From: a virus | Lineage: Duplodnaviria; Caudoviricetes | Virus record (IMG/VR): IMGVR_UViG_3300032225_002228 | Location: 1 to 56,648 of that record | Reading direction: 5' to 3' (one strand) | DNA length: 56,648 nt | Shown here: piece by piece, positions 41,054 to 56,648 of the stretch | How the letters are laid out: every line of letters begins with the position of its first letter | Numbering within the stretch: the stretch's first letter is position 1 | Notes under the pieces: model-generated | Told to the model about the DNA's origin: nothing | Databases searched by the model: none | Seen by the model: only the letters and a program-made list of their open reading frames with translations | Translations under genes and position numbers: made by a program

Positions 41054-41337
41054 GGGGATGATCGGTTTCGACTTTTTTGGATGTAATTGCGAGGCAGTTC
41101 AAGTTGTAGAACTTGTAAAAACTATAAAAAAAATAACTATCACAATTAGTGAAAACAAGCTCCGTTCTTTGCTCTCCAACTCATTTGTTGCAGCATAACG
41201 GTTGAGCGGCAACTGCTTAGAAACAGAAAGTTGCGTAAAAAAACAAAAAACAGTATAATGTAATAAACGCTAGTGCATAACTGTAACTTTGCAATTATTG
41301 AATAAAATGGACGCGGGTTCGATTCCCGCCATCTCCA
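41054..41337 (+). ncRNA. ssrA: tmRNA
   Basis: 5' GGGGATGATCGGTTTCGAC; 3' GACGCGGGTTCGATTCCCGCCATCTCCA; tag frame 41139-41198 ends FVAA*; TATAAT just upstream. Confidence 0.92.
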
Positions 41338-41351
41338 CAAAAGGAATTAAT

Positions 41352-41934: not shown

Positions 41935-42094
41935 AATAAGGTATAATAATGATAAGATGTTCTTATTGTTTTAACAATAAGGCAATCTACAGGATTGCAG
42001 TGGACACAAAAGTGTCCGGCGAGGAATGTAATCTTGAAATGAAGGTATGCATAAATTGCATACCTATCAATAAATATATAAAAAAGGAGTATGA

Positions 42095-44797: not shown

Positions 44798-45022
44798 ATG
44801 TCTAATTTGACAGAGTTAAATTATGACGAGGCTCACAAATTTGTTGAAAAAAATAAATTTCGTGGCTTTAAATGGAATGGATGGGACATAATTAAGTGGA
44901 CCAAAAATTCAAATGGATACTTTCAGACTAATGGTAAGTTTTCTGACAATGAATGGGGATATGAAACAAGAATCCCATTAACTGAAAACGGCACATGGAA
45001 AGTTCTTACCAAATATGTCTGA
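44798..45022 (+). CDS. Trp-rich hypothetical protein
   Basis: AGGA RBS; TGATATACT at 44753-44761. Confidence 0.7.
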   Translation: MSNLTELNYDEAHKFVEKNKFRGFKWNGWDIIKWTKNSNGYFQTNGKFSDNEWGYETRIPLTENGTWKVLTKYV

Positions 45023-45341
45023 TGAAATTATTAAACATTTAGGCATTCCCAAAGAGGACTTAAAATGGTATCACTTTGCATCATGTAAAAACATGCCTTT
45101 AAATTGGTTTTTTGATGATTATGAAAATGATTCCGGAACAGCCAAGCAAGTTGATGAAATTTGCCTTGGTTGTCCTGTAGCAAAAATTTGTTTGTCTGAA
45201 GCATTAGAAAAAAAAGAAAAATTTGGCGTGTGGGGCGGAATTTATTTAAGTTACGGGAAAGCCAACAAGCAATTAAACAAGCATAAAAGTGCTGAGACTT
45301 GGAAGGCGTTGAAAAAAATACATGGCAAGAGTGTTGTATAA
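45015..45341 (+). CDS. whiB: WhiB-family Fe-S transcription factor
   Basis: W...ASC...FF...CxxCPV...C, GVWGG. Confidence 0.92.
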   Translation: MSDEIIKHLGIPKEDLKWYHFASCKNMPLNWFFDDYENDSGTAKQVDEICLGCPVAKICLSEALEKKEKFGVWGGIYLSYGKANKQLNKHKSAETWKALKKIHGKSVV

Positions 45342-45842: not shown

Positions 45843-46139
45843 ATGTTAAAGTTAACAAATAACATGGCAGAGGTTGCTTTAAGTGATAAAAGTGTTGTAG
45901 CCTTTACTGCTGAATGGTGTCAACCATGTAAACAATTAAAGCCACATTTTGCCAAGGCGGCGGTGTTGGATAAAAACAATGATTATTTTGTTGTTGACGT
46001 GGATAAGATTGACAATAAATATATTGAACAGTATAATATTAAAGGCATTCCTGCTATATTCGTAATGTCAAATAATGAAGTAGTTCGTAATGTTTCTGCA
46101 AGAACCACAGAATCAATCATAGAAGAGGTTGCACAATGA
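45843..46139 (+). CDS. Thioredoxin
   Basis: FTAEWCQPCK, VDVD, GIP. Confidence 0.9.
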   Translation: MLKLTNNMAEVALSDKSVVAFTAEWCQPCKQLKPHFAKAAVLDKNNDYFVVDVDKIDNKYIEQYNIKGIPAIFVMSNNEVVRNVSARTTESIIEEVAQ

Positions 46140-46339
46140 ATAAATGGGAAAAGATTGGTAAATTTGTCGGAATTGTCGTAATTACCGGAATTAACGCATA
46201 TGTCTTTATTGACTTAATTCGTAACATTAGAGCCGATAAATCAATAGTGTCAGACCTATGTGCTATATTTGCTATAGCAGCATGGCAAAACACAATAAAA
46301 TTGTCCATCAAATGTCAAAAGAGTAGAACCCTAACATAA
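46136..46339 (+). CDS. Small membrane protein
   Basis: GAGG RBS, hydrophobic segments. Confidence 0.45.
   Translation: MNKWEKIGKFVGIVVITGINAYVFIDLIRNIRADKSIVSDLCAIFAIAAWQNTIKLSIKCQKSRTLT
46248..46269 (+). promoter_or_regulatory. TGTCAG-box promoter, only + strand copy: TGTCAGACCTATGTGCTATATT
   Basis: Matches the 22-bp consensus; about 80 nt upstream of the HslV-like gene. Confidence 0.65.
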
Positions 46340-46350
46340 GGAGAATCAGC

Positions 46351-46905
46351 ATGACATGTATTGCCGCAGTAAAACACAACAACAAAGTTTACCTCGGCGG
46401 GGATAGTGCATTGGTAGACCTGAATAACGGTAATAAGGTCAAATTAAATTCTCCTAAAGTATTTAGGTGCTACGAATATATTATAGGCTACGCAGGAAGT
46501 GCTAGAATGGGGCAATTGCTTCAAAATTACTTTGAGCCTACAGACCCACCTGACAATCCAGAGGAATTAGAATTTCACATGGTCACAACATTTATTGATG
46601 AGTTGAGAGCGGTGGCAGAAGAAAAAGCCTTACGACTAGATGCGAGCGATGAGCAGGTGAATGATTTTGCTCAGATTATAGTCGGAGTAAATGGAAGAAT
46701 CTTTGTTATTGAAGAAGATTGGCAAGCCTCTGAATGGGCATACGATTACGCTGCAATTGGGTCAGGATGTTCTGCAGCATTAGGCTCCTTATACACAACG
46801 CATAAGTTGGGCGTAGATCCGGAAATCCGCGTAAAATATGCTCTTATGGCAGCAACAGAACATACCTTAACAGTATCAGAACCATATCATATGGTAATTA
46901 AATAA
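46351..46905 (+). CDS. HslV/proteasome-beta-like Ntn protease
   Basis: N-terminal Thr (MTCI), GGDS, K, GYAGS, AIGSG..ALG. Confidence 0.8.
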   Translation: MTCIAAVKHNNKVYLGGDSALVDLNNGNKVKLNSPKVFRCYEYIIGYAGSARMGQLLQNYFEPTDPPDNPEELEFHMVTTFIDELRAVAEEKALRLDASDEQVNDFAQIIVGVNGRIFVIEEDWQASEWAYDYAAIGSGCSAALGSLYTTHKLGVDPEIRVKYALMAATEHTLTVSEPYHMVIK

Positions 46906-46943
46906 GTTACAGTAGTAACTTAAATTATATAAGGAGATATAAA

Positions 46944-47174
46944 ATGGCTGAAGTACCCGTTAGTAATGATGAACTAGAAGATATTGTCTCAGTTGTCGCA
47001 CATGAATTGTACTCAAAATGGGCTGTAGATGATAGATTTACAGAAGAACAAATAGAAGAATTTGCCGGGTATGCGGTAGAAGATACACTATTTGTTATTG
47101 GAATTTATATGGAAAAGGTTAACGAATTAATGGCAGAAAAACAAAAATTGTCTTTGCTCAATAATTTATCATAA
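46944..47174 (+). CDS. Hypothetical protein
   Basis: AAGGAG RBS. Confidence 0.7.
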   Translation: MAEVPVSNDELEDIVSVVAHELYSKWAVDDRFTEEQIEEFAGYAVEDTLFVIGIYMEKVNELMAEKQKLSLLNNLS

Positions 47175-47257
47175 CAATTCATCAATTGTTACTTAATCAA
47201 TGATAAAATAGTAATAAGCCACAGTCATTATTGGCTGTGGCTATAACTATAAAGAGG

Positions 47258-47617
47258 GTGATTGACATCAAGTTATTCCGCATAATAGATAAGAAAGTAG
47301 AAGTACTTTCTGATTTAGCATCGGAATGGTCTGGCAAACCTCTATTCCTCTTCCTTCATCTAATTTGGTGGGGTATATGGATCGGACTAGGAGTTGAGCC
47401 ATATCCATTTGGAATGCTCACACTAATCGTATCGCTTGAAGCCATTTGCTTGTCAGGGTTGATTTTATCAAGCCAAAATAGACAAAGAGCATATGACATA
47501 AAACTGTTGAAACAGACGCGCAATGCGTCAGCTGATACAGAAAATGCCGTAGAAGACATATATGAGGAAATACAAGACATTAGAAAAATACTTGAAGATG
47601 AGGCGGGGGATGAATAA
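47258..47617 (+). CDS. DUF1003-like membrane protein
   Basis: PYPFGMLTLIVSLEAICLSGLILSSQNRQ. Confidence 0.75.
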   Translation: MIDIKLFRIIDKKVEVLSDLASEWSGKPLFLFLHLIWWGIWIGLGVEPYPFGMLTLIVSLEAICLSGLILSSQNRQRAYDIKLLKQTRNASADTENAVEDIYEEIQDIRKILEDEAGDE

Positions 47618-47838
47618 TGATTAACATAATACTCTATATATCTATAACACTTAACATAGTATTAGGATATAAAGCATATAAAAACAAAAACATGTTACAT
47701 AAAGCCTATGACACTATAAATAGGCAATCAAACAATATTCTGACACTTACCAAGAGTATTGCTTATAAGTATTCTAAGTCTGATTTAACCTTTGAGATGC
47801 GTAGAAAACAGCTTCTTAAATCTTTAAATCGTAAATAA
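47617..47838 (+). CDS. Hypothetical protein, N-terminal TM
   Basis: Last + strand ORF. Confidence 0.55.
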   Translation: MINIILYISITLNIVLGYKAYKNKNMLHKAYDTINRQSNNILTLTKSIAYKYSKSDLTFEMRRKQLLKSLNRK

Positions 47839-47963
47839 TGTACACTGGTAAATTAAAATAAATACACTACTAATGTATAGATAATGATTTAGGTAGTATA
47901 AAATAAGACAATTCGGACATCGTAATCCGTATAAATATGGTCTAAATACAACGAAATCAGCAT

Positions 47964-48010
47964 AAAATCGGGTGAAATACTACGGAATTCGTAGCAAATA
48001 ACCCGATTTT
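47964..48010. repeat. Nested inverted repeat at the strand-switch point
   Basis: AAAATCGGGT...CTACG-GAATT-CGTAG...ACCCGATTTT. Confidence 0.7.
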
Positions 48011-48025
48011 GTGTGAAATCCCCCG

Positions 48026-48138
48026 TCAAAGTAATTTTTGATCTATTCGTAATCTATTTTTCAAAGTAAATTTGGGATGCATTCGTAATCTTTTTTTTGA
48101 TATAGACTTCAAAGTAAAAAATAGCTCTTTCGTAATCT
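48026..48138. repeat. Three direct repeats TCAAAGTAA-N11/12-TTCGTAATCT
   Basis: Copies start at 48026, 48061 and 48109. Confidence 0.8.
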
Positions 48139-48262
48139 TTTTGGGGGATGTTAATAGAACATATGGAGAACCCCCGGCTCCATGACCATTTGGAAACCGG
48201 GGGCATATCCCAACATTCGGGCGGCGGGTGAAACAACCCTAATTGCCCTTAACCAATAATGT

Positions 48263-48292
48263 ATTTTATCATACACTACTAATTTTTGTCAA
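48263..48292 (-). promoter_or_regulatory. Sigma70-type promoter TTGACA-18-TAAAAT reading into non-coding DNA
   Basis: Consensus with extended TG. Confidence 0.65.
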
Positions 48293-48600
48293 GGTGAGAT
48301 ATATTCTATTGGCTTAGGTAACTCTCCATATGCATAACTAGGTAGACTAAGTTCATCATCCAATGCATATTCCTTTATCTTCTTACATACTCTGATTATT
48401 TCATATAGGTCACTTCTTACGATACCCGCCTCGTATCTACGAGATTGCATATAGATATAAGCAATGATTGTGTTCCACAATTTCTCGTGAATAACATAGG
48501 GCATAGACGACAGGCGGTGAACGAGGGAGACCTCGTTGTACCTATAATCTGCTAAATTACTTTCTAATGCTTCTAGTACCTTATCTTCTGGCAACTTCAT
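48289..48600 (-). CDS. Hypothetical protein
   Basis: AGGAG RBS and own promoter. Confidence 0.75.
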   Translation of the reverse strand: MKLPEDKVLEALESNLADYRYNEVSLVHRLSSMPYVIHEKLWNTIIAYIYMQSRRYEAGIVRSDLYEIIRVCKKIKEYALDDELSLPSYAYGELPKPIEYISP

Positions 48601-48626
48601 ATTTGCTCCTAACTGTAGGAAAGGCT

Positions 48627-48648
48627 ATTGTATCAGATGCCTCAGACA
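48627..48648 (-). promoter_or_regulatory. TGTCAG-box promoter TGTCTGAGGCATCTGATACAAT
   Basis: 22-bp repeat copy. Confidence 0.7.
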
Positions 48649-48998
48649 TACTGAGCGCTGGGTACCACAGAAACAAGTGGGTCATCAGAACGAACCACAA
48701 TACATGGAGCTTGAATGCCTTCAGGACAGATGCAGTAAATCATATGAGCCTTGCACTTCATGCAACCAGTAAAACGTACCTCTGTGTCCCATTTGGTCCA
48801 GCCCACCAATGCAAAGGATGGGCGGACAGGGGTGGATGAATAAGGAATCCAAGGGGTACCTAGTTTATGTTCCTTTTGAGAGTTAGGTTCATCAAATGTA
48901 CCATCATATGATTCAATAGCATGCTTCATAGCATCAGTAAATCGTCCACGTTCACCTACATTAAATCCTAGGCTACGCAAGTATTCTCGTTTAGTCAT
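48642..48998 (-). CDS. Lsr2-like DNA-binding protein with Cys-rich C-terminus
   Basis: REYLRSLGFNVGERGRF resembles the Lsr2 RGR AT-hook domain; CxxC..CxC. Confidence 0.65.
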   Translation of the reverse strand: MTKREYLRSLGFNVGERGRFTDAMKHAIESYDGTFDEPNSQKEHKLGTPWIPYSSTPVRPSFALVGWTKWDTEVRFTGCMKCKAHMIYCICPEGIQAPCIVVRSDDPLVSVVPSAQYV

Positions 48999-49348
48999 AC
49001 ATTGTACTCCGTTCCATGCTCATCTTCCCAATTTAGAAATAGACAATTGTCATCTACATAGAAATGAAAAACCTTGTCTTCGATTTGACTATTCATCCAA
49101 TCAAGAGCCAATGCGGATTCTTCCCACAATCCCTGCGAAACATCTGCTTGGTCTTCTAGGGATAAGTCGTCATATTCAGCCATATCTTTTTCTAATTGAA
49201 CTTCGTCTACATCGTATCCATAAGAAATTGCTAACTTGATAATGCTATATGAAAGTGTATTTCCACTTTCACTACCACAATCAATCCAGCAACCATACGC
49301 ATCTGGACTGATACTATCATTGATGTTACTCTTCAGATTGTTGTTCAT
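48995..49348 (-). CDS. Acidic hypothetical protein
   Basis: GGAG RBS. Confidence 0.7.
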   Translation of the reverse strand: MNNNLKSNINDSISPDAYGCWIDCGSESGNTLSYSIIKLAISYGYDVDEVQLEKDMAEYDDLSLEDQADVSQGLWEESALALDWMNSQIEDKVFHFYVDDNCLFLNWEDEHGTEYNV

Positions 49349-49532
49349 ATTTCTCCAATAGGCTCAGGGCGTTAAACGCCTCTTCCATGTCTGTATCAGG
49401 GTCAAAGTAGTCTACCACAATCATATCCTTTAAGTCAAGTTTTTGTTCGTCCAACATCATGGGGGCGGAACAAAGAATACCTTGTTTCATAAAGTAACCA
49501 ATGTTTCCTCCCTTAGGTGCTACTACTCTCAT
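49326..49532 (-). CDS. Hypothetical protein
   Basis: ATGA-coupled. Confidence 0.6.
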   Translation of the reverse strand: MRVVAPKGGNIGYFMKQGILCSAPMMLDEQKLDLKDMIVVDYFDPDTDMEEAFNALSLLEKYEQQSEE

Positions 49533-49753
49533 AGATTCCCCACCTTTGTTGTTTCATCAGATAATTTGGTAAGTGCAGCATTTAGCCAATCATATGCATT
49601 TGCATCTTCTTTTATTTCAGATGGATGTGTATGCCGGAACTTGCCTGTGGATGTATCATAGATAGTTCCATCTTTCAAGAAATAATCTTCCCTAGATAGA
49701 TAGTAGTGACCTGTATTTCTATTATATGCAACTACAAAGTGATGCTCAATCAT
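49529..49753 (-). CDS. Hypothetical protein
   Basis: Start MIEHHF with GGAG RBS. Confidence 0.6.
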   Translation of the reverse strand: MIEHHFVVAYNRNTGHYYLSREDYFLKDGTIYDTSTGKFRHTHPSEIKEDANAYDWLNAALTKLSDETTKVGNL

Positions 49754-49755
49754 TA

Positions 49756-50025
49756 TTAGTTGCTCCATTCTTCATAGGAATAAGAAGGCTTATAATCTTC
49801 AACATCATCTGCATACTCGCGGTCTACATACTCATCTTCATAGCCAGCGTCAATTGCCATTTGCCACACGATGCCAAGGGCATCGTTGTCGCCACTCTGT
49901 GCATTCTGCCACACATCGGCGGGAATAGAGCGAATGAACTCTTCATCACTAATAGGAATACTAATCTCATCTGTCTGTGAAACAATAACGTCCTTGTATT
50001 GCTTAATGTAGTAGTAGTTACTCAT
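49756..50025 (-). CDS. Acidic hypothetical protein
   Basis: Start MSNYYY with AAGGAG RBS. Confidence 0.65.
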   Translation of the reverse strand: MSNYYYIKQYKDVIVSQTDEISIPISDEEFIRSIPADVWQNAQSGDNDALGIVWQMAIDAGYEDEYVDREYADDVEDYKPSYSYEEWSN

Positions 50026-50212
50026 CTGCATTCTCCTTATACCATTTGGCGTATGTATGAACGGTGAAGTCATCTTCAGCATCTTGTGCATAGTCTAGCA
50101 CATGGGTCAGACACTCAAAGGTGTCCACATAGTTATCACGGTCATAAGAATCGACATAGACCTCATAGAACACACCACTAGGTCCTCCATCGATTTGGTA
50201 CACATCTAGCAT
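50018..50212 (-). CDS. Acidic hypothetical protein
   Basis: GGAGG RBS; coupled. Confidence 0.65.
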   Translation of the reverse strand: MLDVYQIDGGPSGVFYEVYVDSYDRDNYVDTFECLTHVLDYAQDAEDDFTVHTYAKWYKENADE

Positions 50213-50391
50213 CAGAGTTCGTCCTCCCAGTCAAGTGGTTCCACATTGGATGCAGTCCAATTTTGATATGCAACGCATAGTGTTTCCCACAAATCAGACC
50301 ATTGCTCATCAGTGAGCGGAACAGAGTCGGGGAAGTCATGAAATCTATCAAATACCAATACATCTGGCGGGCAATTAGAAGGTGTATCCAT
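50212..50391 (-). CDS. Acidic hypothetical protein
   Basis: Start MDTPSN after AAGGAG RBS and promoter. Confidence 0.6.
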   Translation of the reverse strand: MDTPSNCPPDVLVFDRFHDFPDSVPLTDEQWSDLWETLCVAYQNWTASNVEPLDWEDEL

Positions 50392-50419
50392 TATCTCTCC
50401 TTTGTTGTAAGTAAGGCAT

Positions 50420-50441
50420 ATACTACCATACACCACTGACA
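50420..50441 (-). promoter_or_regulatory. TGTCAG-box promoter TGTCAGTGGTGTATGGTAGTAT
   Basis: 22-bp repeat copy. Confidence 0.75.
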
Positions 50442-50445
50442 CCGA

Positions 50446-50576
50446 TTCACTCAGGGTATCCTAAGTTCAAAATAGTTTCAAAATAAGATCGTAATGTCAT
50501 CGTAATGTCATCGTAATGGTGAATTTGCTATACATCGTAATGTTCGATTTGTCGCAAATGTCGGGCGGTGCCGCCC
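50446..50576. repeat. Intergenic cassette: CTCAGGGTATCCTAAG palindrome, 4x ATCGTAATG, GGGCGGTGCCGCCC
   Basis: ATCGTAATG at 50488, 50499, 50510 (11-bp period) and 50534; homologous to 55128-55220. Confidence 0.8.
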
Positions 50577-50587
50577 CAGCTCTTGAG

Positions 50588-50668
50588 TGCCTAACCTTGG
50601 AATCGAACCAAGCATACCGAATGGTGACGGTTTTACAGACCGCTTCCCCACCTTGGGGACTGTTAGGC
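50588..50668 (-). tRNA. tRNA-Tyr(GUA)
   Basis: GCCTAAC/GTTAGGC acceptor; GCGGT-CTGTAAA-ACCGT; long variable arm; TTCGATT. Confidence 0.82.
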
Positions 50669-50673
50669 GCGCA

Positions 50674-50695
50674 GGTGGGGGCTTTCGCCCCCACC
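50674..50695 (-). terminator. GC hairpin (GAAA loop on -) after the DUF932 gene
   Basis: GGTGGGGGC-GAAA-GCCCCCACC. Confidence 0.55.
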
Positions 50696-50701
50696 CTTAG
50701 A

Positions 50702-51682
50702 TTAGACTAACACCGACTTTACAATCGTGAGCAGGTTGTTCTTTTTAGCATTGTGCAAGTCATCCATGCCGCTAGCCTTGATAGCAATAGCCTCTGTGTT
50801 ATCCTTGCGCGGATTGGAGAAATAGTCCAAGTGTTCAGTCAGAGTTTGGTATGCACCCCAAGCCGTTCCTGCAATCATGATGTTTGTGGGGGCTGTGTAT
50901 AGGTCTTGCAACAAGTCCTGCTTAGTCTCCCACTTTTTCATGCTACCCTTTGCATCCTTGTCAGGCATTGGGAATGCGCGAACAACAATCTCATCAAACT
51001 GTGCTTTGGTGATTTCTGTCTCAATGAGAGCCTGAGCCTCTGCCTCAAACGCATCCATCCATCCATGAAGACGCAACATACCATCACGAGCATCTGCAAT
51101 ACGAGAAATTGCAGACTCGGTGTGGCGAATAGTAAATCGCTGTGAGCAATCTCCAAGAGCGATAGCCTGCGTGTTAGCGCAAACAACGCGGGTCGGGGTA
51201 ATCATTCCACTAATGGCAAGTGAACCATCGTGTGAAGTGTTAGCCACAAGATAGGTCTTGATTACATCTGCAACGCCTGTCGGGTCAAGAACAACCTCGC
51301 GGTCAAGGGCAGCAGTAGCAAATACCTGTGTGCCATTCTTGATAGAACCGATGGTCTCAATACGCAAGCCTAATTGACCAAGCCAATCAAGTGCGTCTTC
51401 GTTTTGGATTTCCTGATACTTCTTGCCGTTGATAGCAAGCACATCGGGATTTCCTGTTTCAGGATTGTCGCGCACCATCATAAACTTCTGAATCTTGGTG
51501 CTGTATCCATCTGGATAAACGACAGGCTCTTGACGAACATTCCAGCCTGACACCTTTGCGATGTCCATGCCCTCTTGTAGGGTGAACTCGTCAGTCAAGA
51601 CTGTGCCAAGTTTGTGCCATGCCTTCTCGCGCAACGAAACGAATGAAGCCTGACCATTTACGATTTCTAACTCGTGTGACAT
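50702..51682 (-). CDS. DUF932-family protein
   Basis: MSHELE, AWHKLG, QNEDA, SHDGS, TPTRVVCANT, IRHT, GTAWGAY. Confidence 0.85.
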   Translation of the reverse strand: MSHELEIVNGQASFVSLREKAWHKLGTVLTDEFTLQEGMDIAKVSGWNVRQEPVVYPDGYSTKIQKFMMVRDNPETGNPDVLAINGKKYQEIQNEDALDWLGQLGLRIETIGSIKNGTQVFATAALDREVVLDPTGVADVIKTYLVANTSHDGSLAISGMITPTRVVCANTQAIALGDCSQRFTIRHTESAISRIADARDGMLRLHGWMDAFEAEAQALIETEITKAQFDEIVVRAFPMPDKDAKGSMKKWETKQDLLQDLYTAPTNIMIAGTAWGAYQTLTEHLDYFSNPRKDNTEAIAIKASGMDDLHNAKKNNLLTIVKSVLV

Positions 51683-51713
51683 TATTTCTCCTTAGTTGGT
51701 GTTTGATAGCGCA

Positions 51714-51735
51714 AGCATACCATACGGGTCTGACA
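51714..51735 (-). promoter_or_regulatory. TGTCAG-box promoter TGTCAGACCCGTATGGTATGCT
   Basis: 22-bp repeat copy. Confidence 0.75.
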
Positions 51736-51812
51736 AGCATTACATCGGGGGGGTCTTAATAGATCGCAAATTGAGAGAATAGGGGCGGTGGCGCGGGAAC
51801 CATAGAACACAA

Positions 51813-51839
51813 AGGGGACAGGTGGCGAACCTGTCCCCT
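51813..51839 (-). terminator. Intrinsic terminator
   Basis: AGGGGACAGG/CCTGTCCCCT stem, TTTGTGTT tail on -. Confidence 0.65.
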
Positions 51840-51852
51840 CCATACTAGAGAT

Positions 51853-52032
51853 TTACTTCTTGCGTGAGTTAGGCGCAGGCTTAGCACTCTTGAGTGCGGT
51901 AAGCGAAATGTTATCGACAAATCGTCCCTGCTGACGAACGACAACGCGCTCTGACACAGAGCCATCGGGCATACTCCACTTCTCCAAGTAGGAGTAGGAC
52001 TTTGCGGGGGACTTCTTAGATGATTTACTCAT
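51853..52032 (-). CDS. 59-aa basic protein (not in ORF track)
   Basis: AAGGAG RBS; MSKSSKKSPAK...VVVRQQGRFVDN. Confidence 0.65.
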   Translation of the reverse strand: MSKSSKKSPAKSYSYLEKWSMPDGSVSERVVVRQQGRFVDNISLTALKSAKPAPNSRKK

Positions 52033-52056
52033 GTTATTCTCCTTGTGTTTGTTTGA

Positions 52057-52215
52057 TTAGTTTAGTGCGTTATTTAGTGCGATTGTCATTTGCGCAAAGA
52101 TTGAAACTAGAGAGTCATTCAATTCTCCGTCCAACTCATCATGTTCTTCTATAAAGTCTTGAAGTAATTCAAGTGCGTATTCCATTGCATCGGAATAACC
52201 TTCTTGGTATGTCAC
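52057..52215 (-). CDS. Small acidic protein
   Basis: GTG start after GGAGGTG; TYQEGYSDA. Confidence 0.55.
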   Translation of the reverse strand: MTYQEGYSDAMEYALELLQDFIEEHDELDGELNDSLVSIFAQMTIALNNALN

Positions 52216-52216
52216 A

Positions 52217-52411
52217 TTACACCTCCCCAACAATGCGAATAATGTCTGCATGACCAATTTTGCTTAGAAAATAATCAAGTTTCCATTTCTCAGTGACGAC
52301 AACATCAAAAACAGAAGTATCTTGCCTAGTAATAGGCAAACCCATAATCTCCGCTTCTGTTGATGCTACCGCCATGTCTGAACAATTATTTACTTTTATT
52401 GTTACAATCAT
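52217..52411 (-). CDS. Hypothetical protein
   Basis: ATGA-coupled to upstream ORF. Confidence 0.55.
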   Translation of the reverse strand: MIVTIKVNNCSDMAVASTEAEIMGLPITRQDTSVFDVVVTEKWKLDYFLSKIGHADIIRIVGEV

Positions 52412-52539
52412 TGAGTACCCCAATCTTTGTATTTTGGCTTTTTGTAGCCCCCCGATTTGATGGGTTTTTCGTGTTCACGACTTGTGTTCCAAGACTTGCC
52501 CTTGGGCTTTTTGCGTTGTGGCTTGCGCTCTTGTGTCAT
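52408..52539 (-). CDS. 43-aa Lys-rich protein (not in ORF track)
   Basis: MTQERKPQRKKPKGKSW...; starts 6 nt after a -10 (leaderless). Confidence 0.5.
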   Translation of the reverse strand: MTQERKPQRKKPKGKSWNTSREHEKPIKSGGYKKPKYKDWGTQ

Positions 52540-53270
52540 AGCACTACATTACCACTTTCGGAATATGTTGTCAAGCGTTTAGACATTTCTTCTAGTTCTG
52601 CCGCCGTAGGCGTGGGGCAATCATCAAAGAGATAGTCCAATTCCCATTTACCATTTGCTTTGTCATAGTAAATGTTGTCGCAAGCGTGACAATAACCCTT
52701 GCGTTCCATAAGTTCTACATGGCTATCGGGAATGTCCCACTCTTCTTTTTGGAGAACATTATCGCCTTGTAGTGTTACATCACCACCCCAGCCCTGTTCC
52801 TCTTCATACTCAATGTTGATAATCAAGTCGGGGTATTGCTTGGCTAGTTTCTCAATGGCTTCTAGTGGGGGACTCCAAGGGGTATCAAACTTGTAGGAAA
52901 TTGTGAGAGTACCAGCAAGTTCTATGTCGTCTAGCATTTCTACATCACCTGCGTCCCACTTGCAACCCCATTCACGCACATTCCAATGCCACCAATCTCC
53001 ACCTTCTGCAAGAGCCTTTGTGTATGACTCGGTAAAGTTATCTAGGTCTACCTTGTGTGTTGGTTCACCCCAATAAGTGTCAAGGTCGGTGGGGGAAATG
53101 ATGTTCCAGAAAGAGAAGGCAGACTCATGCACATCTTTTACATTCTGAACACCATCTTTGGTCATTGTCCTGTGGTTGGTTTCATACGGTTGTGCAAGTT
53201 TCTCCCTGACTTCATTCACCAAGTCGGTGGAACCTGTGATGGACAAGTTATTGAATACCCAATTAGGCAT
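52536..53270 (-). CDS. DUF1281/YubB ferredoxin-like domain protein
   Basis: MPNWVFN.L, WWHWNVREWGCKWD, FDTPWSPP, YPDL...YEEE. Confidence 0.8.
   Translation of the reverse strand: MPNWVFNNLSITGSTDLVNEVREKLAQPYETNHRTMTKDGVQNVKDVHESAFSFWNIISPTDLDTYWGEPTHKVDLDNFTESYTKALAEGGDWWHWNVREWGCKWDAGDVEMLDDIELAGTLTISYKFDTPWSPPLEAIEKLAKQYPDLIINIEYEEEQGWGGDVTLQGDNVLQKEEWDIPDSHVELMERKGYCHACDNIYYDKANGKWELDYLFDDCPTPTAAELEEMSKRLTTYSESGNVVL
52546..52574 (-). promoter_or_regulatory. Sigma70-type promoter TTGACA-17-TAATGT
   Basis: Consensus -35 and TG extension. Confidence 0.6.
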
Positions 53271-53523
53271 TGTTGTTCTCCTTAGTAGTTGATGAGGTCA
53301 TACTATCAGAAGGGTCTGACATTGGCTCATAGTAATTCAGTAATGACTGCATAGCGCCCCAACCTAATGAAATACATGCATTTTCCAAGTCTTCGGCAAT
53401 AGAGTCAATGGCATCTATGCATTGCTCATCAGTCCATTCAGGGTAGAGTGATTTTACATCTAGCGCACACCATGAGATGTTGGCTACTGGATTGGTCATT
53501 TGGTCTAACATTTGTTCTGACAT
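53263..53523 (-). CDS. Hypothetical protein
   Basis: AAGGAG RBS and own promoter. Confidence 0.7.
   Translation of the reverse strand: MSEQMLDQMTNPVANISWCALDVKSLYPEWTDEQCIDAIDSIAEDLENACISLGWGAMQSLLNYYEPMSDPSDSMTSSTTKENNNA
53300..53321 (-). promoter_or_regulatory. TGTCAG-box promoter TGTCAGACCCTTCTGATAGTAT
   Basis: 22-bp repeat copy inside the 3' end of the upstream ORF. Confidence 0.75.
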
Positions 53524-53550
53524 TTATTCTCCTTTGTTGTTGATGAGGAC

Positions 53551-53572
53551 ATCCTACCACATGGGTCAGACA
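53551..53572 (-). promoter_or_regulatory. TGTCAG-box promoter TGTCTGACCCATGTGGTAGGAT
   Basis: 22-bp repeat copy. Confidence 0.75.
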
Positions 53573-53808
53573 GAGGTTGCATCGGGGTCTAAGTGATAGG
53601 TGACGGGAAGTGGGAATACCTGAAAACCTTCATCTTGATTAGTAGTGTCTAAAAACTTTGTAAAGGCATCACTAAAAATAATTGCATCAGCAATTTCTTG
53701 CTTCCACTGCCAATCTTCCATTTCTACATTAGCCATTTCTCTGACAAAATTATCAAGAGAAATAGTAACTCTTAGGGGAATACTTACCTCTACTACACGA
53801 TTTTCCAT
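53566..53808 (-). CDS. Hypothetical protein
   Basis: AAGGAG RBS; stop codon supplied by the TGTCTGA box. Confidence 0.7.
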   Translation of the reverse strand: MENRVVEVSIPLRVTISLDNFVREMANVEMEDWQWKQEIADAIIFSDAFTKFLDTTNQDEGFQVFPLPVTYHLDPDATSV

Positions 53809-53832
53809 TTTATCTCCTTTTCTTGTAAGGTA

Positions 53833-53854
53833 ATCTTATCATAACCCTCCGACA
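53833..53854 (-). promoter_or_regulatory. TGTCAG-box promoter TGTCGGAGGGTTATGATAAGAT
   Basis: 22-bp repeat copy. Confidence 0.72.
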
Positions 53855-53866
53855 TCTGCAAGTCGC

Positions 53867-53909
53867 ATCGTAATGCCTAGATTCTCTCAAAGAGGGGGCG
53901 GTGCCGCCC
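53867..53909. repeat. Cassette elements ATCGTAAT and GGGCGGTGCCGCCC
   Basis: Same order as at 50.5 kb and 56.25 kb. Confidence 0.75.
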
Positions 53910-53922
53910 TTGTAAAAGCAAA

Positions 53923-53949
53923 GAGGGGCAGGTGACCAGCCTGCCCCTC
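53923..53949 (-). terminator. Intrinsic terminator
   Basis: GAGGGGCAGG/CCTGCCCCTC stem then TTTGCTTTT on -. Confidence 0.7.
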
Positions 53950-53967
53950 CATTCACCCAACCGTCCT

Positions 53968-54411
53968 CTAGTAAGTTCCGTTATCAAACTCCTGAATGGT
54001 GTAGTCATCATACAGGGCAGTTCCATCACCATTGTAGTTGATAGTAACATCAAAGTCATGGTCTTCAATTTTTTGACCAAGTGGCACAGAAATGGTGGCG
54101 GTGTAAACAATAGTCATCTCAATCTCAACCTCTTTGTCAAGGTCAATGCCAAGTAGTTCGGCAATCTCTGAAAGTTCATCAGTAACTTCATCATTTTCTT
54201 CTGCGTATTCTAGAATGTAGTTTCGCACACTCTGAATGCTATCAAAGAGTCGCTTGTGTTCTAGTTCTACATTTTCCAAGCGATTCACTTTTACTGAAAG
54301 GTCATGTGCATTTACTGAGTATTCCTCGGGTGGTCGCACAGCCACTACATGTGGATTTTTGGCTAGCACGATACTAGCCTCGGGGTTGTAGGTGTATGTT
54401 GTGTCGTTCAT
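53968..54411 (-). CDS. Acidic hypothetical protein
   Basis: Start MNDTTY after GAAAGG RBS. Confidence 0.7.
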   Translation of the reverse strand: MNDTTYTYNPEASIVLAKNPHVVAVRPPEEYSVNAHDLSVKVNRLENVELEHKRLFDSIQSVRNYILEYAEENDEVTDELSEIAELLGIDLDKEVEIEMTIVYTATISVPLGQKIEDHDFDVTINYNGDGTALYDDYTIQEFDNGTY

Positions 54412-54443
54412 TGTTTTCCTTTCGGTTGGTTTGTGAGATTTGT

Positions 54444-54465
54444 ATCTTAGCATAGGGGTCAGACA
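54444..54465 (-). promoter_or_regulatory. TGTCAG-box promoter TGTCTGACCCCTATGCTAAGAT
   Basis: 22-bp repeat copy. Confidence 0.75.
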
Positions 54466-54677
54466 CTAATGTATTCGGGGTCTAGGTTTAGAACACACCA
54501 AGAGCCACCCTTATTCATTTCAGTCATGAAGGTAGAAAACTCGGGGGTATCAACAAGAGACAAGCCAACAAGTTTGACAATAGTCTCTTGGTCGTAAACA
54601 TTAGTCGCGTATTGGACAAGAGGGTGATTCTCGTCAAGTTCGGCAATCATTGGGATAGAGAAGTTTAGTTTGAGCAT
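54459..54677 (-). CDS. Hypothetical protein
   Basis: GAAAGG RBS; stop inside the TGTCTGA box. Confidence 0.7.
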   Translation of the reverse strand: MLKLNFSIPMIAELDENHPLVQYATNVYDQETIVKLVGLSLVDTPEFSTFMTEMNKGGSWCVLNLDPEYISV

Positions 54678-54706
54678 TTTGTGCCTTTCGGTTGGTTTGT
54701 GTGATT

Positions 54707-54728
54707 ATCTTACCATGAGGGTCTGACA
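54707..54728 (-). promoter_or_regulatory. TGTCAG-box promoter TGTCAGACCCTCATGGTAAGAT
   Basis: 22-bp repeat copy. Confidence 0.78.
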
Positions 54729-54737
54729 AGGGTATGA

Positions 54738-54775
54738 GTGGGGGAAGCGAGTCGTTAGGGTCGCATTTCCCCCAC
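54738..54775. terminator. Hairpin between cassettes
   Basis: GTGGGGGAA-GCGA...TCGC-TTCCCCCAC. Confidence 0.5.
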
Positions 54776-54785
54776 CCACACTAGA

Positions 54786-54944
54786 CTACTTTACAGTAGT
54801 CCAGCGGTCTTGACCATTGACATCAAGGCGAACACGGAATGAGCCATTCTGATTCTGAATGACTTCCTGAACAGTTCCAACCGTTTCAGACTTTTGAGTC
54901 GTGAACAGCGAGCCAACTGTCGGGGACTTGGTGAGATTTACCAT
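54786..54944 (-). CDS. Small SH3-like beta protein
   Basis: Start MVNLTK after AGGA; VGSLFTTQKS..VGTVQEV...RVRLDV..RWTT. Confidence 0.65.
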   Translation of the reverse strand: MVNLTKSPTVGSLFTTQKSETVGTVQEVIQNQNGSFRVRLDVNGQDRWTTVK

Positions 54945-54980
54945 TTTGCTTCCTATCGTTGTAGTTACTGTGATAAGCAC

Positions 54981-55002
54981 ATCTTACCACAAGGGTCTGA
55001 CA
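54981..55002 (-). promoter_or_regulatory. TGTCAG-box promoter TGTCAGACCCTTGTGGTAAGAT
   Basis: 22-bp repeat copy. Confidence 0.78.
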
Positions 55003-55010
55003 ACCCTTTG

Positions 55011-55083
55011 CGACTCTAGGGGGAAGTCGAACCCCCTCTACTACCGTGACAGGGTAGTGTGCGAACCTTTACACTATAGAGCC
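55011..55083 (-). tRNA. tRNA-Asp(GUC)
   Basis: GGCTCTA/TAGAGTC acceptor; CTACC-CTGTCAC-GGTAG; G73. Confidence 0.88.
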
Positions 55084-55101
55084 TTGTTTAGTTATAGGAG
55101 T

Positions 55102-55123
55102 ACTATACCATACCCCTCTGACA
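55102..55123 (-). promoter_or_regulatory. TGTCAG-box promoter TGTCAGAGGGGTATGGTATAGT
   Basis: 22-bp repeat copy; ends 18 nt before tRNA-Asp with no RBS in between. Confidence 0.8.
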
Positions 55124-55127
55124 TCGT

Positions 55128-55220
55128 TTCACTCAGGGTACCCTAAGTAATAAGTTCAAAAGTGATCTATGTCATATCGTAATCACTTGACAAGCACTAA
55201 GAGGAGGCGCTGTCGCCCCC
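55128..55220. repeat. Intergenic cassette, second copy: CTCAGGGTACCCTAAG, TTCAAAA, ATCGTAAT, GC box
   Basis: 19/20 match to 50446-50465 and same element order. Confidence 0.8.
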
Positions 55221-55228
55221 GATCTTTG

Positions 55229-55301
55229 TGCGCCATGTAGGACTCGAACCTACGACCTACGGATTAAAAGTCCGCAGCTCTACCAACTGAGCTAATGGCG
55301 C
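55229..55301 (-). tRNA. tRNA-Lys(UUU)
   Basis: GCGCCAT/ATGGCGC acceptor; GCGGA-CTTTTAA-TCCGT; TTCGAGT. Confidence 0.92.
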
Positions 55302-55339
55302 GTGGCGGGGTTTTTAGAGAGACCCCAAACTCTTTAGGC

Positions 55340-55846
55340 TCACCAACTAGCCCGATAGATAAACCAATCATTCTCGCTATTAGACAACACGCGGTCAATC
55401 ATAGCGATGGTATTCTGCAAGTCTTGAAAATACCACTCGTCATACTCAAGTCCGCCAAAAAAGAATCCAGCGCGGGTAGGTAGAAGTTCCTCTGCCACCT
55501 TAGTAGAGTTATTGCTCTCATACTCTGAAACAGCAAGCGCACAGTAATCACGCAAGGTAGTAAGGTTATCACGACTCAAACCAATGTCTTGGCAGTTATC
55601 CTCGCCATCGGCAAAGTTCTCAACGATGTAGTTGTGAATAGAGTTAGCCTTGCGCCAATAACCGACAGGGATTCTTACAGTCATTCCCGTCCAAGAGTCG
55701 GGGTCAAGCAGGTGGGTAGCGTCAAGAATGGTGGCAAGATTAGTGAAAGTCTGATTGTCGGTCACATTCAAGTCACCACCCTCGCTGCGGTCATAGTCCT
55801 TTGCTGATACATACTTTTCGACATAGAGATACATGTCCAAGCCCAT
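55340..55846 (-). CDS. Conserved phage protein (MGLDMYL...YWRKAN...GFFFG...YRASW type)
   Basis: Recognisable motif set; GAAAGG RBS. Confidence 0.78.
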   Translation of the reverse strand: MGLDMYLYVEKYVSAKDYDRSEGGDLNVTDNQTFTNLATILDATHLLDPDSWTGMTVRIPVGYWRKANSIHNYIVENFADGEDNCQDIGLSRDNLTTLRDYCALAVSEYESNNSTKVAEELLPTRAGFFFGGLEYDEWYFQDLQNTIAMIDRVLSNSENDWFIYRASW

Positions 55847-55882
55847 TGTTATTGCCTTTCGTTGTTGGTGTTTGTTGAGATT

Positions 55883-55904
55883 ATTCTAGCACAAAGGTCA
55901 GACA
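55883..55904 (-). promoter_or_regulatory. TGTCAG-box promoter TGTCTGACCTTTGTGCTAGAAT
   Basis: 22-bp repeat copy. Confidence 0.75.
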
Positions 55905-56188
55905 TCATAGTCTGCGTCATAGTCATAGTCGGTAGTCCACGCGCCTAAATGGTGTTGTTCGATGATAGCCCAAGCAGGTGCTTCGCTCTTGCCCTTGTAT
56001 GAAACGCCTTCGGGCATAGGAATAAGCGCATCGCAGTCATCTGCCCAATAAGCGTCAATGGCTGTAATACAAGGCTCAACCATAGACAACGGGACGGGGG
56101 GATAGTGATTGCCTTGCAAGTGCCAACCAATAGCCTGCTCCATAGTAAGACCGCTATCGGCGATTTCCACAGAAGTCATGTAGCCCAT
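55898..56188 (-). CDS. Hypothetical protein (HLQGNHYPPVP...HHL type)
   Basis: AAGGAG RBS; stop inside the TGTCTGA box. Confidence 0.75.
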   Translation of the reverse strand: MGYMTSVEIADSGLTMEQAIGWHLQGNHYPPVPLSMVEPCITAIDAYWADDCDALIPMPEGVSYKGKSEAPAWAIIEQHHLGAWTTDYDYDADYDV

Positions 56189-56219
56189 TTATTTCTCCTT
56201 TGTTGGTGTGATAGAACAT

Positions 56220-56241
56220 ACTCTACCATACCCCTCTGACA
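56220..56241 (-). promoter_or_regulatory. TGTCAG-box promoter TGTCAGAGGGGTATGGTAGAGT
   Basis: 21/22 identical to the 55102 copy. Confidence 0.8.
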
Positions 56242-56281
56242 TCGTAATCATCGGGGTGGGCTTAAGGGGGCGGTGCCGCCC
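56241..56281. repeat. Cassette elements ATCGTAAT and GGGCGGTGCCGCCC
   Basis: Same order as other cassettes. Confidence 0.75.
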
Positions 56282-56418
56282 TATTCAAAACTCTTGATTA
56301 GGGCTGGATTGTAAAATGATGAATTAGGGTCTGCGCATTTTTCATAGCATAAATGACACAGTGGAATATTATCTACTTGTTCACTAGAACCACGACACAA
56401 GAAACATTTGTCACTCAT
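56281..56418 (-). CDS. Small Zn-finger protein
   Basis: Start MSDKCFLC...CHLC. Confidence 0.55.
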   Translation of the reverse strand: MSDKCFLCRGSSEQVDNIPLCHLCYEKCADPNSSFYNPALIKSFE

Positions 56419-56569
56419 AGGGAAGACTCTCCAACTGTCGAATGTATTTATCTGTGAAGTTGTCCATTGACTTGACAAAATTTTCCCATGCTTTATCTCC
56501 AAAGTCCCTCCCAACAGAGTCAGTAAACCAATCGCGGGGGAAAAAGAATTTGCGGTCTTGTGCTGGCAT
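56411..56569 (-). CDS. 52-aa hypothetical protein (not in ORF track)
   Basis: AGGA RBS; MPAQDRKFFFPRDWF... Confidence 0.55.
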   Translation of the reverse strand: MPAQDRKFFFPRDWFTDSVGRDFGDKAWENFVKSMDNFTDKYIRQLESLPYE

Positions 56570-56603
56570 TAGTATCCTGCTTTCTCTAAGATTTGTAAGA
56601 GTG

Positions 56604-56633
56604 ATTGTATCTCATTAGGGGTCAATTTGTCAA
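56604..56633 (-). promoter_or_regulatory. Sigma70-type promoter TTGACA-18-TACAAT
   Basis: Consensus hexamers upstream of ATG 56569. Confidence 0.6.
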
Positions 56634-56648
56634 TAGCATCTTGGTCAA

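Follow-up and report, generated by a model that had tools for sequence, protein, structure and literature searches.

What reads the 22-bp element that recurs along the leftward arm of this phage? Within positions 46248–56241 of the window (the whole stretch of 56,648 nucleotides that was analysed) we recognise 14 credible copies, 13 of them on the minus strand, where they form a promoter array on one leftward arm of 8.6 kb, and one on the plus strand. From sequence comparison, we put the probability that host PafBC and SigA drive this arm at roughly two in three. Because actinobacteria use promoters of this type for their DNA-damage genes, it is likely that this uncultured actinobacterial phage switches on the small genes of the arm with a borrowed host activator, the damage-sensing PafBC.

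A sequence-only reading had listed 13 elements, and each of its coordinates does carry one; the list was incomplete, as a 14th copy at 50092–50113 (-) had been overlooked. Its claim of no indels is upheld across the copies. TGTC is indeed invariant, but the GA said usually to follow it gives way in copy 50420, which reads TGTCAGT; this copy fails the strict form and fits the published PafBC skeleton, TGTCNG-N10-TANNNT. That skeleton has 18 matches in the window, compared with 1.68 ± 1.38 in shuffled sequence (0/100 shuffles reach 18), and 14 of the 18 fall in 46248–56241. The strict form, TGTCNGA-N6-TGNTANNNT, has 13 matches in the window (12 on the minus strand, one on the plus strand) and none in the reversed control, and the looser TGTC-N12-TANNNT has 26, against 8.62 ± 2.80 in shuffles. 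Every element (14/14) has TGTC at positions 0–3, G at 5, TA at 16–17 and T at 21. Positions 4–6 are AGA or TGA, and positions 4–9 follow (A/T)GA-CCC/GGG. The two halves are coupled: TGTC precedes 11 of the 12 occurrences of GA-SSS-N3-TGNTANNNT in the window, and TGTC.GACCC, which occurs seven times, has TG and TANNNT after it in every case. A sigma-70 scan of the window returned 24 sites, none of which coincides with a box.

This geometry is, position for position, that of a known cellular promoter. [quoted passage not shown] Judged by what has been published on these promoters in mycobacteria and other Actinobacteria (PMC8635444, PMC11804915, PMC6789036), the spacing of the bipartite motif is identical in the phage, and both share an invariant GTC near -26 (14/14 phage copies), a canonical -10 of the form TAnnnT, an asymmetric box and no -35. 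The earlier placing of a conserved promoter box at -28 to -23, where it cannot be a -35, is supported; PafBC promoters have theirs at the same position. The proposal of a phage-specific promoter class does not survive, because the same box is found in cellular PafBC/RecA-NDp promoters and is enriched in Actinomycetota before DNA-damage genes. The accompanying idea of activation or sigma appropriation survives in part: a factor bridging DNA and sigma region 4 fits the architecture, nothing here points to the phage WhiB, and the host factor that had also been suggested is the best fit among those named.

The phage elements would act, on a model taken from the published PafBC work, as hybrid promoters with a -26 element (GTC at about -27 to -25), an extended -10 and no -35. 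The -10 would be bound by the host housekeeping RNA polymerase with SigA; the host WYL heterodimer PafB/PafC, activated by ssDNA, would then enter between the DNA and SigA domain 4, with the helix-turn-helix of PafB reading GTC and that of PafC gripping SigA domain 4. The module would thereby be wired to the host's DNA-damage and ssDNA alarm, for which infection itself, phage replication and sunlight are possible triggers. PafBC requires ssDNA for its action (PMC11804915), which is awkward if the arm genes are the very first to be expressed; their early status, like the action of PafBC at the phage sites, is something that we infer. A search of RNA runs turned up none that contains the sequence. 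The phage also departs from cellular PafBC promoters in being viral, in arraying 13 copies along a single arm whose boxed genes are tRNAs and genes without known function instead of DNA repair genes, and in carrying (A/T)GA-CCC/GGG at positions 4–9 where mycobacteria have a weak 'gg'. The AGA or TGA at positions 4–6 counts against the PafBC reading; the GACCC form is common in other Actinomycetota.

Followed leftward along the minus strand, the PafBC-type promoter at 56220..56241 (TGTCAGAGGGG..TGGTAGAGT) ends 31 nt upstream of the ATG of a 96-aa ORF (55898..56188), and that at 55883..55904 ends 36 nt upstream of a 168-aa ORF (55340..55846), after which comes tRNA-Lys (55228–55301). The copy at 55102..55123 ends 18 nt upstream of tRNA-Asp (55010–55083). 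Small ORFs then follow 54981..55002 (52 aa, 54786..54944, 36 nt away), 54707..54728 (72 aa, 54459..54677, 29 nt), 54444..54465 (147 aa, 53968..54411, 32 nt), the TGTCGGAGGG variant at 53833..53854 (80 aa, 53566..53808, 24 nt) and 53551..53572 (86 aa, 53263..53523, 27 nt). The promoter at 53300..53321 ends 29 nt upstream of a 244-aa DUF1281_C/Api92-like ORF (52536..53270), downstream of which lie four small ORFs without a box of their own, and that at 51714..51735 ends 31 nt upstream of a 326-aa DUF932 gene (50702..51682). At 50420..50441 (-), the TGTCAGTG variant, a form that in the Planktophila-family sample stands ahead of recA, ends 28 nt upstream of a 59-aa ORF (50212..50391). The overlooked copy at 50092..50113, placed within the 3' end of the ORF before it, stops 60 nt short of ORF 49756..50031, the first in a series of ORFs that extends to 48642, and the TGTCTGAGGC variant at 48627..48648 ends 26 nt upstream of the last leftward ORF (48289..48600). 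The sole plus-strand copy, at 46248..46269, ends 81 nt upstream of ORF 46351..46905, a proteasome homologue (HslV/BPH-like). In all, 11 of the 13 minus-strand copies end 24–36 nt before a Shine-Dalgarno sequence and start codon, and the boxed genes have a short A/C-rich leader and a strong ribosome-binding site.

The suggestion that nearly every early gene has its own promoter was overstated, as there are 13 boxes for about 24 leftward ORFs and three tRNAs, and the arm includes several short operons without a box of their own. Downstream of the boxes we found small ORFs without known function, the DUF932 and Api92-like genes, tRNAs and the proteasome homologue, and no DNA-damage-response genes. 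Such cargo is a trait of the regulon and not of the promoter, and marks the phage's departure from the cellular class. Among 15 proteins of the leftward arm compared with Pfam, 12 had no family, and PHROGs matched four of 10 arm proteins, all to families of unknown function. A canonical promoter-like site (TTGACA-18-TACAAT, 56604..56633, -) at the upstream edge of the arm shows that putative ordinary -35/-10 sites are also present in the phage; another (TTGACA-18-TAAAAT with TG, 48263..48292, -) is directed into a 450-bp non-coding gap. A G+C-rich hairpin core, GGCGGCACCGCC, lies on the minus strand at 56269..56280, in the gap that separates a stop codon from the following box, and the word recurs at 53897–53908 and 50564–50575; these hairpins are probably terminators that set the cassettes apart.

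The same box is found in the cells that such a phage might infect. In 201 sampled Actinomycetota genomes, TGTCAGACCC-N6-TANNNT has 61 matches against four in the reversed control (about 15-fold), and Actinomycetota account for 44 of the 80 titled matches listed in a genome-contig scan for the box, with taxa assigned by hand from the titles. Ten ORFs tested downstream of cellular boxes comprise one RadA-like protein, one SNF2 helicase, three DUF222-HNH proteins, one DinB/MST, one WGR, one TetR and two unknowns. The cellular copies differ from those of the phage at the extended -10: TG at that position (-15/-14, giving TGnTAnnnT) is present in all 14 phage copies and, by hand count, in only nine of the 61 cellular TGTCAGACCC promoters.

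Could the phage copies then work with host RNAP-SigA alone, as self-sufficient extended -10 promoters whose TGTC-GACCC box is a relic or serves to adjust spacer shape or strength? TGn promoters can do without -35 contacts, so PafBC may be dispensable at the phage copies, and independence from it would suit immediate-early expression that precedes any ssDNA signal. The window, however, contains 204 TGNTANNNT words, so an extended -10 by itself is insufficient to define the sites, and the box is the PafBC -26 element at exact spacing. Furthermore, TGTC precedes 197 of the 199 occurrences of GACCC-N3-TGNTANNNT in related phages, with unconserved flanks, and a merely tolerated box would not stay invariant. 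We consider this explanation unlikely. Under the PafBC reading, the TGn common to all phage copies is likely to strengthen the promoters and could allow a degree of basal activity independent of PafBC.

Those relatives extend the pattern. The box occurs in at least 119 IMG/VR stretches, and a homologue of an arm protein is encoded at 75 of the 119 box-bearing loci. Three relatives have 12, 17 and 14 skeleton matches against two, two and four in the control, mostly in one region of about 10 kb and on one strand, and TANNNT follows 237 of 240 occurrences of TGTC.GACCC at the fixed spacing. A position table of 225 distinct copies, drawn from viral loci related to this one, shows no -35: with the T of TGTC as reference, information content is low at every position between -40 and -4, and upstream conservation is confined to AAA at -3 to -1. 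In cultured Streptomyces cousins the boxes are not enriched (Jay2Jay, four vs 12 in the control; Blueeyedbeauty, two vs four), and the equivalent arm of Jay2Jay-type phages has TTGnnn-N17-TAGACT promoters. Kinship with this group is seen in the DnaB of the phage, which is 62% identical to that of Stanwilliamsviridae, and in the DUF932 gene, which occurs in the Jay2Jay-type terminal-repeat arm. We counted the box-poor Streptomyces cousins against the PafBC reading.

A second alternative is that SigA is steered to the box by a phage factor, which could be the WhiB (45015..45341, +; four Cys, a GVWGG turn and a Lys-rich tail) or a small protein not recognised as such, through appropriation in the manner of MotA/AsiA or mimicry of PafBC. 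Wbl proteins bind SigA region 4, WhiB is encoded in all five related phage records, and there is room for an unrecognised factor, given that most arm proteins lack a family and that the window covers only 47% of a genome. Nevertheless, WhiB, which had been proposed as a candidate, is common in actinophages, lies 20–30 kb from the promoter cluster in relatives, and has no evidence tying it to the box. Domain searches of the five records, of which three have a completeness of 92% or more, found no WYL domain, no HTH_PafC and no Sigma70_r2 (PF04542; controls positive in 10 of 14 genomes). MotA and AsiA (PF09114, PF09010) likewise gave no match in the five, a blank that carries little weight as both families were silent in every control genome. 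Cellular genomes without such a phage use the same box, and a phage-made activator cannot serve the first genes expressed. This explanation seems to us less probable still than that of RNAP-SigA alone.

Finally, the box might be an operator through which a repressor shuts the arm, or a decoy that soaks up PafBC-RNAP and blunts the host damage response. Its density invites the thought, with seven TGTC.GACCC in about 5 kb of phage against at most eight in an 8.5-Mb genome, beyond any sampled cellular genome. The fixed register with the -10 and gene starts, though, marks working promoters, and PafBC binds RNAP only when it is already on a promoter (PMC11804915), so a decoy would still fire. In a variant of this idea, the reader would be a host WYL activator of the SiwR type. 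SiwR of M. smegmatis and DriD of Caulobacter are ssDNA-sensing WYL activators of damage genes that act near -26 or upstream; SiwR acts at -26 (PMC10693628), so that position alone is not unique to PafBC. However, SiwR is a homodimer on a 19-bp palindrome with a GGA triplet (PMC10693628), whereas the phage box is asymmetric with GTC. Moreover, Planktophila-family WYL matches beyond the tandem pair are frames of 722–748 aa, which are not SiwR-sized; two more are frames cut short, at 71 and 162 aa. We regard the operator, the decoy and the SiwR variant as very improbable.

How does the arm compare with other viral systems? Arrays of early host-takeover genes are known in large virulent phages, as in the SPO1 terminal redundancy and the T5 pre-early region. 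These, and the leftward terminal-repeat genes of Stanwilliamsviridae, resemble the arm in their small unknown genes with their own strong promoter and strong ribosome-binding site and in their inter-cassette hairpins, but they use canonical -35/-10 host promoters. T4 middle promoters, whose MotA-box sequence and spacing serve here for comparison only, have like the phage a -10 with an upstream box (at -30) in place of a -35, and like the proposed scheme a protein bridging DNA and sigma region 4. In T4 the phage itself supplies the factors, and these remodel sigma region 4, whereas here no phage factor was found, with the MotA/AsiA controls silent, and the box is a motif of the host. The PafBC authors themselves draw the comparison with T4 sigma appropriation (PMC8635444).

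As for the host, we infer an actinobacterium, for which the phage WhiB is a marker. A plausible lineage is the family of a Ca. Planktophila genome, in which WYL proteins occur in each of the 41 genomes sampled, for the most part as neighbouring pairs; in one pair, WYL+WCX adjoins HTH_PafC+WYL. The PafB-like protein of that pair matches PafB of the RNAP-PafBC structures 7P5X and 9FND from end to end (E ~1e-51) and keeps K5, R8, S40, E42, A43, R46, R50, K52 and R56. In the family, the PafBC skeleton is present at eight of 22 recA loci. The strict form with the extended -10 shows no enrichment in the 41 genomes (10 matches vs eight in the control, only four of the 10 with GACCC), and this too we counted against the PafBC reading. 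Phage GroES identity does not discriminate among hosts, at 30–37% to the Planktophila family vs 26–40% across the phylum.

In its widest form, which we hold only tentatively and at somewhat less than even odds, the proposal is that virulent freshwater actinophages of a large group have wired their whole host-takeover module to the WYL-type ssDNA sensor PafBC and, through sigma adaptation, fire a dozen optimised promoters at once. If so, the phage would eavesdrop on a DNA-damage alarm that might be raised by the entry or replication of its own DNA, by UV or by a nuclease-based defence. Sigma adaptation would then be seen in a virus for the first time, and achieved without any viral transcription factor. 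Furthermore, the extended -10 would make each element a 'super-PafBC' promoter, which could also out-compete host repair genes for PafBC-RNAP.

All 13 of the promoter elements described in the sequence-only reading were found in the window (rated 47% complete by CheckV in its 56,648-bp IMG/VR virus record), and one extra copy lies at 50092-50113 on the minus strand. The strict form of the element, TGTCNGA-N6-TGNTANNNT, matches the window 13 times and its reversed pattern control 0 times; the looser skeleton, TGTCNG-N10-TANNNT, has 18 matches (1.68±1.38 in shuffles), and TGTC-N12-TANNNT has 26 (8.62±2.80 in shuffles). The two halves of the element are tightly coupled, and the extended -10 position is occupied by TG in 14/14 credible window copies. 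Of the 13 leftward copies, 11 have their 3' end 24-36 nt ahead of a Shine-Dalgarno sequence and start codon; for the remaining two the distance is 18 nt to tRNA-Asp and 60 nt to a start codon. Among the sequencing runs listed as containing the sequence, none was an RNA run.

Genes in the window are read rightward from 1 to ~47.8 kb and leftward from 56.6 to 48.3 kb. The rightward set includes DnaB, primase, Pol III alpha, RecA, sugar-modifying enzymes, GroES, dCMP deaminase, WhiB and thioredoxin. G+C is 0.40-0.47 in the leftward arm (48000-56648) versus 0.30-0.39 in 1-47800, and the GC and AT skews of the arm are inverted relative to the rest. Since the phage encodes a WhiB protein (Pfam match 2.9e-14), we take its host to be actinobacterial. 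The closest relatives in culture are Streptomyces phages belonging to the Stanwilliamsviridae (DnaB 62% identical, DUF932 42% identical); megablast with both arms gave no match to INPHARED phages, and tblastn with the best-conserved arm protein, of 96 aa, gave none among cultured phages. These Streptomyces cousins lack the feature, as judged from Jay2Jay, which shows no box enrichment and whose equivalent arm has TTGnnn-N17-TAGACT promoters where the arm described here has boxes. Two features of the rightward region are recorded separately. ARAGORN calls a tmRNA at 41054-41338 (+) whose tag peptide is odd; the call overlaps small ORFs and may be false. A looser skeleton match without the TG (TGTCCGG..TAATCT) lies at 42013-42034 (+), 60 nt 5' of the phage GroES gene; ~1.7 such matches are expected in the window by chance, and it may mean nothing.

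The element recurs in many related phages. Scanning IMG/VR with TGTCNGACCC-N3-TGNTANNNT returned at least 119 stretches, and most of those listed have 35-43% G+C; among the stretches listed, 55 carry two or more strict-form boxes, and at 75 of 119 loci at least one arm protein has a homologue. In three records of 92-100% completeness, the skeleton has 12, 17 and 14 matches (control: 2, 2 and 4), most of which fall on one strand of a single ~10-kb region. Tabulated by position, 225 distinct copies hold information only in the box, in an AAA just upstream of it, in the -10 (TGcTAnAnT) and in the A-rich leader with its Shine-Dalgarno sequence, and none at the expected place of a -35 region. A -35 with a short spacer was rejected as a reading of the box: ATGTCA lies just 11 bp from the -10, a T precedes TGTC in only three window copies, and relatives have AAA there. 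A sigma-54 (-24/-12) promoter was also rejected, because a GG is missing and the spacing differs by one base; sigma-54 is not known from actinobacteria. Nor is the box a WhiA site (GACAC) on the opposite strand, as G precedes TGTC in only 4/14 copies, or a 'stoperator' of the cluster-A type, since such sites are not known to keep a fixed register to a -10.

Cellular genomes offered a closer parallel. When each prokaryote species, represented by one genome, was scanned with TGTCAGACCC-N3-TGNTANNNT, Actinomycetota made up 44 of the 80 titled entries among the matches listed. Many cellular boxes lie 6-9 nt 5' of a start codon, as with leaderless actinobacterial mRNAs. Ten downstream ORFs examined with Pfam comprised one RadA-like protein, one SNF2 helicase, three DUF222-HNH proteins, one member of the DinB/mycothiol-S-transferase family, one WGR protein, one TetR and two without a family. 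Together, the dominance of Actinomycetota and the nature of these genes led us to suspect the DNA-damage promoter that Actinobacteria use independently of RecA/LexA. Across the 201 Actinomycetota genomes sampled, TGTCAGACCC-N6-TANNNT was counted 61 times (4 for the reversed control), spread over 24 genomes with at most eight copies in one. Six genomes of the phylum sample, flagged as unpublished, gave no match and underlie none of the claims. Myxococcota or 'Deltaproteobacteria' account for ~10 of the 80 titled entries listed and Gemmatimonadaceae for two; a similar activator outside Actinomycetota may be served by the same box and -10.

That promoter is the target of PafBC, a WYL-domain heterodimer that works with the host sigma factor SigA. 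According to the structural report, its in vivo consensus is the 22-nt tGTCgg(N10)tA(N3)T, in which the 3' part is the SigA -10 and the 5' part, a '-26 element', spans -23 to -28, with no -35 present (PMC8635444). The same report describes a cryo-EM structure in which PafBC lies wedged between SigA domain 4 and the DNA, and in which the PafC helix-turn-helix binds that domain; G and C of the almost invariant GTC are read by PafB R46 and R50, and the authors themselves liken PafBC to T4 AsiA/MotA (PMC8635444). The phage elements have exactly the geometry of this consensus, with GTC invariant. The earlier proposal of an activator-dependent promoter in which the box replaces the -35 is supported, whereas the class is the host's and not phage-specific. 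SiwR, another WYL activator, likewise works at -26, but on a palindrome with GGA (PMC10693628).

The phage copies differ from the cellular ones in several respects. All have the TGn extended -10, compared with 9/61 cellular copies in the 201-genome sample, and no sampled genome approaches their packing density. They precede small genes of unknown function, DUF932, an Api92-like protein, tRNAs and a proteasome homologue, and not repair genes. This homologue (46351-46905, +) lies downstream of the sole plus-strand box, and its product matches PHROG 'peptidase HslV family' (8.7e-20), PDB 5OVS 'BPH' (2e-4) and, weakly, Pfam Proteasome; its position is curious because the Pup-proteasome locus is genetically tied to cellular PafBC. 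PafBC and sigma adaptation are known so far solely from the response of cells to DNA damage. Among the papers listed on PafBC and phage or mycobacteriophage, no title or abstract named a PafBC-type promoter in a phage genome, and searches with the motif strings gave only unrelated primer matches. A 2025 study in ACS Infect Dis reportedly concerns pafBC and mycobacteriophage resistance.

Which partner supplies the factor can be addressed from five phage records, the window and four relatives, three of them at least 92% complete. A WYL domain, the PafC helix-turn-helix and Sigma-70 region 2 were each found in 0/5 records, as were MotA and AsiA, for both of which the controls were also silent. 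WhiB, put forward earlier as a candidate factor, is present in 5/5, but in the relatives a distance of 20-30 kb separates it from the promoter cluster. Because no WYL, PafC or sigma domain was found in these records and WhiB is so distant, host PafBC is the parsimonious factor and, on these sequence comparisons, is likely to act at the phage boxes in preference to WhiB. A further alternative is that SigA recognizes these promoters alone, as the extended -10 could make PafBC dispensable. If host PafBC is the activator, timing could follow from its biochemistry, as it is activated by single-stranded DNA and binds only RNAP-SigA already on such a promoter (PMC11804915): ordinary TTGACA promoters would fire first, and PafBC-type ones once single-stranded DNA appears. 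The phage does contain a few canonical TTGACA-N17/18 sites, among them one at the arm's upstream edge, in keeping with this proposed order. A prophage-induction switch was rejected, as tyrosine or serine recombinases were found in 0/5 records.

The family of Ca. Planktophila, one genome of which contains two copies of the box, is a plausible host lineage possessing PafBC. WYL proteins occur in 41/41 sampled genomes of this family, mostly as adjacent pairs of ~310-350 aa, and in one pair a WYL+WCX protein adjoins an HTH_PafC+WYL protein. The PafB-like member aligns to PafB of 7P5X and 9FND (E ~1e-51) and keeps all DNA-contacting residues named in PMC8635444. The skeleton is found at 8/22 recA loci of the family, six of which have the start of a recA-sized ORF 33-169 nt downstream of it. 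Enrichment of the strict form in these genomes was expected but not observed (10 matches versus 8 for the control). GroES identity was rejected as a guide to the host, as its range in the Planktophila family (30-37%) overlaps that across the phylum (26-40%). Both boxes of the Ca. Planktophila genome, on two contigs, are followed by nearly the same leader of ~90 nt; they form a repeated promoter-plus-leader element, which is possibly a small RNA or a mobile unit.

Three boxes are preceded by G+C-rich hairpins with the identical core GGCGGCACCGCC (56269-56280, 53897-53908 and 50564-50575, all on the minus strand; 0.01 expected). Each follows a stop codon and has no T-run, and they probably act as terminators that need no factor, as in actinobacteria. 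The window contains 25 copies of the word ATTACGA (5.1±2.3 expected), with fourteen copies on the minus strand of 46060-56248, four within 53 bp at 50489-50541 (the first three spaced with a period of 11 bp) and four at 47920-48136. The last are in the 450-bp non-coding gap between the convergent arms (47850-48300), which also holds a TTGACA-18-TAAAAT site at 48263-48292 (-) and, by eye, two copies of the 13-nt word ATTAGTAGTGTAT beside ATTACGA copies. ATTACGA was rejected as a partner of the box: it lies within 120 nt upstream of 3/12 strict minus-strand boxes in the window and 0/168 in relatives, so it does not belong to the promoter class. A regulator or origin peculiar to this phage may have its site there.

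If these phages do use the -26 element, the finding explains a motif found in at least 119 IMG/VR stretches, and the box is a simple sequence marker tying uncultured phages to actinobacterial hosts. Together, the box and TGn would make natural promoters that are compact, strong and probably inducible by damage. A widespread group of uncultured lake phages would depend on PafBC as a host factor and, in Actinobacteria, a host stress sensor rather than a phage factor could set the timing of phage gene expression.
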